A stretch of 13,981 bases of DNA. It comes from a virus (lineage: Duplodnaviria > Heunggongvirae > Uroviricota > Caudoviricetes). Positions 6,001-9,000 of the stretch are shown one piece after another (positions within the stretch are counted from its first letter, which is position 1; each line of letters starts with the position of its first letter). A program made the position numbers. The stretch lies in the IMG/VR virus record IMGVR_UViG_2703718868_000002, positions 1 to 13,981 of that record, one strand, 5' to 3'.

Positions 6001-9000
6001 TGGCCTTTTTGTGTTCATCCACACTTTCAGGCCAGCGGACTGCCTCCGTCGCAAAGGTCCCCGACTTGTAATACGTCAGCACCGTCTCTGTGCCTTCAAG
6101 CGGCAGTACCAGTATGCCAACCGCACTACCGGCTTTCTGTCCGTCCCAGACCACCAGTTTCCCGCTGGCTTCATCCAGCATCAGGGGCGTCAGTGCCGGT
6201 GTTGCCTGAGAAATCCCGCTGCTGCCTGTGGCGGTATGAGCCGGATCATTACCGGCAAAAATACGTACTTCTGCACGTTGTTCAGTGATGGTTTTCGTCA
6301 CCATATTGTTAAAACCTCCTATTGATGGTCAGCACTGGCTTCATGGCATGGCCATGAGCATTTTCACGTCCGCATCACCGTCTGCTGACGTCTGTGGCAC
6401 ACCACCCTGTACCGCTGCCGGTGAATGGTTCGCCATGAAATGTTCAAACAGGGCGGTTGTGGATGCAGAAACCGGTTCTGCCTTACCTGATCCCGCAGCC
6501 AGCACAGCCCGGGCGTTCTCCACGGTCATTCCCGGGCAGGCCGCCAGTTTTTCAGCCTGCGCCTCAGCCCCTTTTGCCTCATCCAGAGCCATAATCTGAT
6601 CACGGAGTGAGGGTCCGGCATCCGCCTGCGGTGAAGCAGCCAGGATCGGGCGGGCTTTTTCCACCGTCATATCCGGCATCGCCGCCAGCGTTGCCGCCAG
6701 TTGTTCACGACCTTTAGCTTCTTCACACGCCATAATGCGATCGGCTTCACTCTGCGCGGATGCCACCGGCTGCTGTGGTGCTGCCGCAGCCAGAATCGCC
6801 CGGGCCTGTTCAACGCTCATGCCCTGTTGTCCTGCCAGCATCGTGGCAAGCTGTTCACGTCCTTTCGCTTCCTGACACGTCAGGATCCCCATCACTCGCT
6901 GGTTCTCCTGCGCGGCGGCTTCCGTTGCAGTTAATTGCGGCATAGTGCCTCCTGTATCATGTGTGTTCAGCGCCGCAGCCATCACGCTGATGGCATCCGA
7001 CGCATTGATTAACTCATCCGCCAGCCCGGCCTCAATACCGGACTGACCTTCAAAAACGGCAGCCTCTGTCCCCGTGACAGCTTCCACAGACAGCCCCGTA
7101 TACATCGCCACTTTTTCGGCAAACATCCGGTGCGCCGCATCAATACGCTGCTGCATGTCCTGACACACCTCTGCCGGTAAGGCTTCAAACTGATTGCCAT
7201 CCACCTTATGCGCCCCGGCATAAATCAGCGTGATATCCACTCCGGCCTGCGCCAGATGACCGGCATAGCTGACATGGCCCATCATCACGCCAATGGAGCC
7301 GATACGGGATGTCTGGGTAACCAGCCGTCGGGAGCAGGCCGACGCCAGCAGCATGGCCGCAGAACAGGCCGTATCATTACACAGTGCCCAGACCGGCTTC
7401 TGCTGCCGGAGGCGGTAAATCATGTCAGCGCAGTCAAACGCACCGGCGGCCTGCCCGCCCGGACTGTCAATATCCAGCAGTACGCCCCGGACAGAGGTGT
7501 CCGCCATTGCCTGCTGAAGACAGGCAACAATGCCGTCATAGCCTGTCATTCCGGAAAATGGCCGCATACCACCCAGCCGGTGCACCAGCGTGCCGGTCAC
7601 CGGCAGTACCGCAATACCGTTCACCACCCGGTAAACACGGGCCGGTCGTTTACCTCCGGCCATGTACTCGTCCGTTTCAGCCAGCATCCCGGGAGCATCA
7701 AGCTGTACCTGCTGTTGTGGTAACGAAAGACTTGCTGCCCCCATCTCGCGCCCGAGCGCGCAAAAGAAAACCCGCGCATAGGCGGGCTCCAGAAGCAGCG
7801 GTTCATTGAATGCTGCGGCAATAATGTGTGAAAGATTACGTCTCACGTGGTGTTGTCTCCTCTTCCGGCCTGCGGCTCTCCGCTATCTGCTGCTGATACG
7901 CCTGTGCTATCCACACCGGACGTGAGAGTCCGGCTTTTTCCCGCTCTGCGGATTCCCTGACCTGCTGGCGGAAAATGTCCTGATAATCCTCTCCCATCAG
8001 CGCCAGCTCTTTCTCATACGTGCTCAGTCCGGCCTCAATGCGCATCACTGATTCCTGGACCTCCTTGAGCCCGTCAATGGCCATTCTTCCTGCGCCAATC
8101 CACTCTGCCCGCGACCAGGCTGAACGCGCCTGATAAAAATCAAAACGTGCCCGTGGCGGACGGATAATCCCCCGAAGAAGTGCCTCTTCCAGCCAGCAGG
8201 AAAACATCTGCGTGGCCAGCCGGGCTGCAATAAATTTTCGTCGTCCCATAAAATAGCGCCACGACTCATTGGCGGAGGCGCGGGCACTTGAATAACTGAC
8301 CTTCGAGTAATCACGGGACAACTGTTCGTAGGAAACGCCAAGACCGGCGGCGATATACCGCAGCAGCGCCTGTTCAAGCGCCGAAAATCCATTGTCTGAA
8401 TCCTGCGCGGTCTGCAGTTTCAGATCATCCCCGGGGAAAAGGTGCGGAATTTTGACACCGCCCAGCGTCACATGATTCGTGTCATACCAGCTGGAGAACT
8501 TCTCCAGAATATTAATAAGCGGATTATCCTGCTGACCCTGCGGTGCCCCCGCGATATATTCAAAGGCCTTTTCGGTATCAAGTTCACTTTCAATCGTCGC
8601 TGCATACATGGCTTTAACAATGGCCGACTGAAGCTGTGTTGCCTGCAGGGAATCCAGCATCTTCAGCCGTTCCATGACGCTGTAAAACTGATTGGCCCCA
8701 CGGGTCTGCCAGTCCTCCACCGGCTCGAAAATATGCAGCATGGCCGGACGCCCGGTGGGAAGTTCACGCGGGATCCGTTCCCATCGTCCACTCCAGGAGC
8801 GAGGAAAATCATCCTCACAGATATGGTACGCAACGGCACGGCCATATCGATCGACCTCCACCCCGGCCCGCAGAAAACGATTCCCGATACCGTGTCCTGG
8901 CGTGTCCACCCGTTTCGGACTCACGGCTTTAAAACGCGTGCGGAATAACTGCGTGGTTTCCGTATCCCAGACCGGCTGCACAAAGATTTCGCCGTTAAAG

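Follow-up and report, generated by a model that had tools for sequence, protein, structure and literature searches.

The viral DNA analysed here, a stretch of 13,981 nucleotides (nt) from a member of the Caudoviricetes (IMG/VR record IMGVR_UViG_2703718868_000002, positions 1 to 13,981), is referred to as the window. It is part of a lambdoid late operon, with all genes of interest on the minus strand, and contains a homologue of lambda gpC, a head-maturation protease of the S49 family whose C-terminal part is also encoded as a separate scaffold by a nested gene. Three tandem units of about 42 residues, with periods of 50 and 47 residues, occupy positions 6482-6907 (minus strand) in the part that protease and scaffold share. 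It is near certain that this segment is the protein-coding triplication annotated as Tri boxes in phage 21, carried here by the head gene of a phage-21-type lambdoid prophage.

Organization of the protease and scaffold gene

The 501-amino acid (aa) protein matches the Pfam model Peptidase_S49 (PF01343) at residues 146-293 with an E-value of 6.9e-34 and 117.5 bits, against a cutoff of 24.9. It also matches PHROG 53, 'head maturation protease' (E 9e-226), and its sequence matches in the PDB are to SppA. PHROG 8399, 'head scaffolding protein', is matched in three stretches.

An internal in-frame ATG at 6943..6941 lies 4 nt after the sequence AGGAGG (6953..6948) and would start a product of 200 aa. 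As read from the sequence, this scaffold is identical to the C terminus of the protease and has its own ribosome-binding site. Both phage 21 records (M81255.1 and OL657228.1) annotate a homologous nested coding sequence with a ribosome-binding site there. The features of the gene are listed in Table 1.

Table 1. Features of the protease and scaffold gene in window coordinates (residues are those of the 501-aa protein unless marked Nu3; HMM, hidden Markov model; pLDDT, predicted local distance difference test)
Feature	Position	Strand	Description
Protease gene (gpC / phage 21 gp5 homologue)	6341..7846	minus	501 aa, GTG start; S49 head-maturation protease with C-terminal scaffold region
Nested in-frame scaffold gene (Nu3 / phage 21 gp6 homologue)	6341..6943	minus	200 aa, 603 nt
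Shine-Dalgarno sequence AGGAGG of the nested scaffold start	6948..6953	minus	read from sequence
Unit 1	6773..6907	minus	residues 314-358, ENQRVMGILTCQEAKGREQ...APQ; HMM E ~1e-23; phage 21 Tri1 box maps to 6773-6876
Linker 1 (QPVASAQS)	6749..6772	minus	pLDDT <50 at Nu3 residues 55-63; poorly conserved among homologues, predicted disordered
Unit 2	6623..6748	minus	residues 367-408, EADRIMACEEAKGREQ...SPQA; phage 21 Tri (2) box maps to 6626-6736
Linker 2 (DAGPS)	6608..6622	minus	low pLDDT at Nu3 residues 108-110; variable among homologues
Unit 3	6482..6607	minus	residues 414-455, LRDQIMALDEAKGAEAQ...GSGK; phage 21 Tri3 box maps to 6482-6595
Non-repeated C-terminal tail	6344..6481	minus	residues 456-501; LFEHFMANHSP (6419-6451) and terminal LMAMP

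The three units are homologous to one another

At the DNA level, a 97-nt core recurs three times, at 6786-6882, 6636-6732 and 6495-6591, with spacings of 150 and 141 nt. The copies are 66-71% identical to the reference copy. Among themselves, they share 58-67% nucleotide identity over the core, and the longest exact shared runs are 8-10 nt. Tandem Repeats Finder reports no array over 6200-7100 because the copies are too diverged.

At the protein level, the units are pairwise identical at 24/37, 21/44, and 23/36 positions (48-65%), and the shared C-terminal region contains the conserved Nu3 unit R-I/V-M-G-I-L..EA.GRE..A..LA..PGMT/SVE.A...L.AAP. An HMM of the unit, built from the window and lambda, has three matches in the window, each with an E-value of about 1e-23, and one in lambda gpC. 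Pfam contains no model for the unit, and a Pfam search with the 200-aa scaffold gave noise matches alone (E >0.4).

The scaffold region is 23% alanine, and this composition, along with the missing array, could be taken to mean that there is no true repeat and that the similarity stems from low complexity rich in Ala, Gln, and Glu. The probability of this explanation is negligible. The Smith-Waterman scores of the unit pairs are 86-107, against 25 ± 5 in 2000 composition-preserving shuffles (z = 11.6-16.7), and none of the 2000 shuffles reached the observed values. The register of the units is moreover kept across many homologues. A compositional artefact is rejected by the shuffle test together with the unit HMM. 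The original prediction, made from the DNA alone, of three homologous but diverged tandem copies is thus confirmed, and its interval (6482-6892), start motifs, and period of 47-50 residues were all correct.

The units correspond to the Tri boxes of phage 21

The whole gene is 95.4% identical in nucleotide sequence to genes 5/6 of phage 21 (Jouyvirus) over 1506 nt, with zero indels. Record M81255.1 ('Bacteriophage 21 head gene operon') contains gene 5, the nested gene 6 with its ribosome-binding site, and three repeat_regions within gene 6, called 'Tri1 box', 'Tri box', and 'Tri3 box' and annotated 'function unknown; putative'. The boxes are about 104-114 nt long (L001 2471-2574, 2611-2721, and 2752-2865) and can be mapped onto the window with no indels. 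The mapped boxes coincide with the 97-nt cores and with the HMM units, and their outer limits are near the interval predicted originally. At the corresponding location, the modern phage 21 genome (OL657228.1) has a 'capsid protease/scaffolding protein' together with a nested 'scaffolding protein'.

Phage 21 and the window therefore agree in their products (501 aa and 200 aa), in the internal ribosome-binding site and start, and in having three boxes at corresponding coordinates. They differ by point differences alone, with about 96% amino-acid identity in the scaffold part, and the window is a prophage copy. The triplication itself is already known, as it was recorded for phage 21 decades ago. 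A literature search on Nu3 combined with triplication or repeat returned nothing relevant, the original phage 21 head-gene paper being outside its scope. The present analysis makes modest additions: the spectrum of copy numbers (one, three, and four, along with deletion alleles), the direction in which copy number changed, and the predicted fold of the unit.

The GenBank term 'boxes' and the accompanying 'function unknown; putative' might denote cis-acting DNA or RNA sites, involved in regulator binding or in translational control of the nested gene, instead of protein modules. Record OL657228.1 also marks two pattern-based CII-site matches within the scaffold gene. These matches, however, are to a bare consensus and are out of register with the units. 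The limited nucleotide identity of the cores likewise disagrees with such sites; what is conserved is the amino-acid motif, and most substitutions between homologues are synonymous. A function of the boxes at the DNA level is very improbable, and it was rejected on the basis of the amino-acid-level conservation and the short exact runs.

Comparison with lambda gpC and Nu3

Lambda (NC_001416; gene C, 4418..5737) likewise encodes an S49 protease with a scaffold nested in frame at the 3' end, and its gpC/Nu3 gene is located between the portal gene B and D/E. The lambda unit, IMGILNCEEAHGREEQARVLAETPGMTVKTARRILAAAPQ, is homologous to unit 1 of the window, with 29/48 residues identical. However, lambda has one unit (gpC residues 359-399) where the window has three. 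The original prediction had given lambda a single unit, and the unit HMM indeed matches lambda gpC exactly once. The linker upstream of the lambda unit is longer and rich in Ser, Thr, Ala, and Asp; a relaxed HMM search of this linker found no degenerate second unit.

As predicted, the repeat lengthens both the protease, which has 501 aa compared with 439 aa in lambda gpC, and the nested scaffold of 200 aa. The expected scaffold lengths of 200 versus about 131 aa agree with a lambda Nu3 of 131 aa that begins at Met309, a start preceded by a Shine-Dalgarno sequence and homologous to that of phage 21 gene 6. They do not agree with the RefSeq annotation of nu3 in NC_001416 (5132..5737), which begins at an upstream in-frame ATG (5132) and gives 201 aa. 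Because of this annotation, a plain length comparison would mask the difference.

One copy is common among relatives

The 501-aa protein was used as query in a HMMER scan of 1.84 billion cluster representatives (50% identity), and the best 150 of 31,092 matches with E <= 0.001 were retained. Copies were counted with an iterated unit HMM on the 148 representatives that were new to the scan. Within this set of nearest matches, the unit is present in 101 of the 148 representatives, and 99 of these 101 have one copy. Therefore, one copy is common and presumably ancestral, and the triplication is derived. The possibility that lambda is the outlier and three copies are the ancestral state is not supported.

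One of the 101 unit-bearing representatives, P0093 (505 aa, 58% identical), has three copies. The representative of the window's own 50% cluster, P0092 (382 aa), is an internally deleted variant in which the protease domain runs directly into the central part of unit 2 (...FEGQAAMPEMTVEKARPIL...). The deletion removes the end of the protease, the Nu3 start, and unit 1, and the allele probably belongs to a defective prophage. P0092 is a reminder that cluster representatives may be atypical. A protein search with the 200-aa scaffold returned mostly contig-end fragments, which show two-copy, four-copy, and deletion variants but give no unbiased count.

Three copies are also found in phage 21, Escherichia albertii, Shigella flexneri, E. 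coli, Trabulsiella guamensis, and the Salmonella prophage Gifsy-1. A contig scan with the protease domain gave six loci. The homologues in Gifsy-1 (STM2605, a lambda gpC homologue) and T. guamensis have three units that follow the order of the window and are orthologous to its units one by one, at 56-80% identity; the T. guamensis protease is 80% identical.

In a neighbour-joining tree of the units, which is based on about 40 columns and has low resolution, all first units cluster with the single-copy units of lambda-like proteins, while the added units form a group of their own. Unit 2 of the window pairs with unit 2 of Gifsy-1, and unit 3 clusters with unit 3 of Gifsy-1 and Trabulsiella. Taken at face value, the tree suggests that unit 1 is the orthologue of the lambda unit and that an old tandem duplication gave rise to units 2 and 3. 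On the same reading, the duplication would be older than the split of the E. coli phage 21 lineage from Salmonella Gifsy-1.

Selection on the units and their predicted structure

Codon-level comparisons were made between the window and phage 21, E. albertii, another E. coli prophage, Trabulsiella, and Gifsy-1. The ratio of nonsynonymous to synonymous substitution rates (dN/dS) is below 0.35 in 12 of the 13 unit comparisons that yield an estimate, and is 0.08-0.17 for the protease domain. The values are 0.03-0.33 for unit 1 where estimable, 0.05-0.32 for unit 2 against four homologues, and 0.00-0.30 for unit 3 over five comparisons. The short linkers and the tail evolve faster than the units. 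These codon comparisons indicate purifying selection on each of the three units, with drift in the linkers.

The scaffold region of 96 single-copy homologues is best conserved in the unit, which has 2-2.9 bits per column compared with about 1 in the sequence on either side. Next in conservation is a block with the motif Ld.AM...nP. It is represented in the window by LFEHFMANHSP, which occurs once, after unit 3.

An AlphaFold model of the 200-aa scaffold, calculated from a 10-sequence alignment, shows helical units with pLDDT of 65-79 and linkers below 50. The predicted template modelling score (pTM) is 0.26. This low score and the low-pLDDT linkers suggest no fixed packing between the units, which may be arranged as beads on a string. 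A model of a single unit (unit 2, with an alignment of 31 units) has pLDDT of 85 and pTM of 0.61 and forms a compact bundle of three short helices. Each unit is thus predicted to fold by itself into a compact three-helix mini-domain.

In a Foldseek search with the single-unit model, the best viral neighbours are the C-terminal parts of S49 prohead proteases, with TM scores of 0.72-0.74. These matches come from distant phages (Salmonella phage 37, Synechococcus virus S-ESS1, and an uncultured siphovirus), whose proteases are predicted to have the same mini-domain. The structural similarity suggests that the mini-domain is much older than the lambdoid group.

Copy-number alleles in E. coli

Among 5426 complete E. 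coli genomes, 3222 carry a lambda-type one-copy allele, 1870 (about a third) carry the three-copy allele of the window, and 106 carry a four-copy allele. The three-copy allele is thus one of the most frequent head alleles of E. coli prophages.

The four-copy allele encodes 538 aa and has a regular 46-residue period, with units at residues 319-359, 369-405, 415-451, and 461-497. It is exemplified by E. coli STEC309 (NZ_CP041435.1, L015 598-2214, also L013 1-1043; WP_096934546.1). It shares with the window the gene family, the operon position, and an orthologous unit 1. Its added units, however, are 77-80% identical to one another in nucleotide sequence and thus far more alike than those of the window. 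By this measure, the four-copy allele is a separate or more recent expansion.

Several variant alleles are affected in unit 2. P0022 has an in-register hybrid of units 1 and 2, and P0015 and P0018 are without most or all of unit 2. P0008 and P0011 have a 57-nt deletion within unit 2 that is flanked by CTGGCGGC/CTGGCTGC microhomology. The same deletion occurs in a complete genome, that of E. coli WP3-W18-ESBL-08 (NZ_AP022003.1, L014 298-1746). The alleles affected in unit 2 may belong to defective prophages.

The tandem repeats had also been proposed as a substrate for slippage or recombination. This idea holds weakly. Rare deletion alleles do exist, but 1864 of the 1870 three-copy genomes have the gene at full length. 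Since exact runs reach only 8-10 nt, homologous unequal crossing-over should be inefficient, which fits the stability of the repeat in genomes. A recombination hot spot was rejected in view of these short runs and of the more than 99% of alleles that are full length.

Possible role of the repeated unit in procapsid assembly

Lambda Nu3 is a scaffold that self-associates and interacts with C and with the portal protein B (PMC3224144). Its interaction with the capsid protein E comes from two-hybrid tests, and C probably degrades Nu3 (PMC3224144). The locus as a whole is very likely best explained as a Tri box triplication that provides three modules of about 42 residues. The mechanistic part of this explanation, in which the unit is an interaction module and three copies confer multivalency, is tentative and less likely than not. 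The original suggestion that repeat number alters scaffold valency or spacing in procapsid assembly is likewise speculative. The unit would attach scaffold and protease to the inner face of the major capsid protein shell as it assembles, to further scaffold molecules, or to both of these. With three copies on flexible linkers, every molecule of scaffold or protease would become multivalent, leading to higher avidity or to cross-linking during procapsid nucleation. The protease would then remove the scaffold, by analogy with lambda. Small helical C-terminal modules of transient scaffolds, such as the helix-turn-helix of P22 gp8, phi29 gp7, and P2 gpO, may be functional analogues; the likeness is one of inferred function alone. 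In P2 gpO, the scaffold is likewise fused to a protease.

The main competing explanation is that the extra units serve mainly as spacer. Their length would compensate, in a near-neutral manner, for the long linker of single-copy proteins such as that of lambda, and binding would be performed by unit 1 alone or by the C-terminal tail. The geometry is compatible with this: the lambda unit begins about 50 residues past the Nu3 start (Met309 to 359), compared with a gap of 12 residues in the window, and the unit of single-copy representatives starts at a median residue of 348, compared with 314. The loss of a conserved Arg from unit 3 points in the same direction, as do natural alleles in which unit 2 is missing or shortened; one of these alleles comes from a complete genome. 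However, both added units retain the family motif EAKG-E..A..LA..P.MT.E.A...L, and their dN/dS is mostly 0.05-0.3, like that of the protease, whereas real linkers diverge freely. Positional orthologues of the units persist from E. coli to Salmonella and Trabulsiella, and the separate four-copy lineage keeps the motif too. Conservation of a predicted folded mini-domain would also be unexpected for a pure spacer. The spacer explanation is weakened by these features and is considered unlikely.

Other observations weigh against the units as multivalent interaction modules. First, the near-invariant Arg of GRE, the most conserved Arg of the module, is absent from unit 3 of the window: residues 427-429 (6560-6568, minus strand) are GAE in both the window and phage 21, in contrast to unit 3 of Gifsy-1 and Trabulsiella, which keeps GRE. 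Second, unit 2 gives a dN/dS of 1.0 against phage 21, a value that derives from a handful of substitutions. Third, the alleles without part or all of unit 2 suggest that three intact copies may not be strictly required. Fourth, the units are not basic (K+R 4-5, D+E 4-7), unlike the coat-binding helix-turn-helix of P22, and neither fold or sequence similarity to that solved domain nor a basic surface was found. Fifth, the capsid-binding element of the P22, phi29, and 80alpha scaffolds is the extreme C-terminal tail. By analogy, the non-repeated C-terminal tail could be the capsid-binding element here, and the units could have another role. Finally, the heads of lambda and phage 21, both classed as lambdoid phages, are described as similar; copy number thus has no obvious effect on the geometry of the capsid.

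If the units are interaction modules, copy number (one, three, or four) might be a tuned valency parameter of scaffold and protease, co-adapted with the cognate major capsid protein and portal. This extension is rather doubtful. If true, scaffolds with more than one copy would cross-link a number of capsid subunits or one another, and copy number would be one reason why the head modules of lambda-type and 21-type phages are incompatible. The one-, three-, and four-copy alleles, together with the deletion alleles, form a natural experiment on how the valency of a similar scaffold affects procapsid nucleation.

Operon context and annotation

The segment 6341-6943 is 100% identical to a prophage of E. 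coli strain N51. The gene order of this prophage, as annotated by PGAP, begins with holin, lysozyme, an Rz-like lysis protein, the small and large terminase subunits, and a head-tail joining protein. It continues with portal, S49 family peptidase, head decoration, major capsid, FI, FII, tail proteins, G, T, and tape measure. The layout of open reading frames in the window agrees with the N51 annotation. In the window, the major capsid protein gene is at 4871..5899 and the portal gene at 7836..9428, both on the minus strand. The gene is located between those for the portal and for the decoration and major capsid proteins, and the order is that of lambda: terminase, W, portal, C/Nu3, decoration, major capsid protein.

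In the N51 prophage, PGAP names the gene just 'S49 family peptidase' (L012 6598-8103) and omits the nested scaffold gene. More generally, automated pipelines give 'S49 family peptidase' alone and leave the nested gene out.

The profile of PHROG 21, 'portal protein', also spans an S49 region. One relative, P0098 (844 aa), aligns with the query over residues 411-725, and its S49 domain is in the C-terminal half. Some relatives, such as P0098, appear to be portal-protease fusions.

Two antisense open reading frames of 104 and 77 aa, at 6285-6599 and 6701-6934 (plus strand), run across the repeat units. Most probably they are a side effect of the opposite coding strand being rich in GC and Ala. 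Elsewhere in the operon, GGGAAAG, a -1 slippery heptamer of lambda type, is present at 1963-1969 (minus strand), near the 3' end of G (1902..2333, minus strand) and upstream of T. The count of this motif in the window is by itself not above chance, but its position is consistent with the conserved G-T frameshift.

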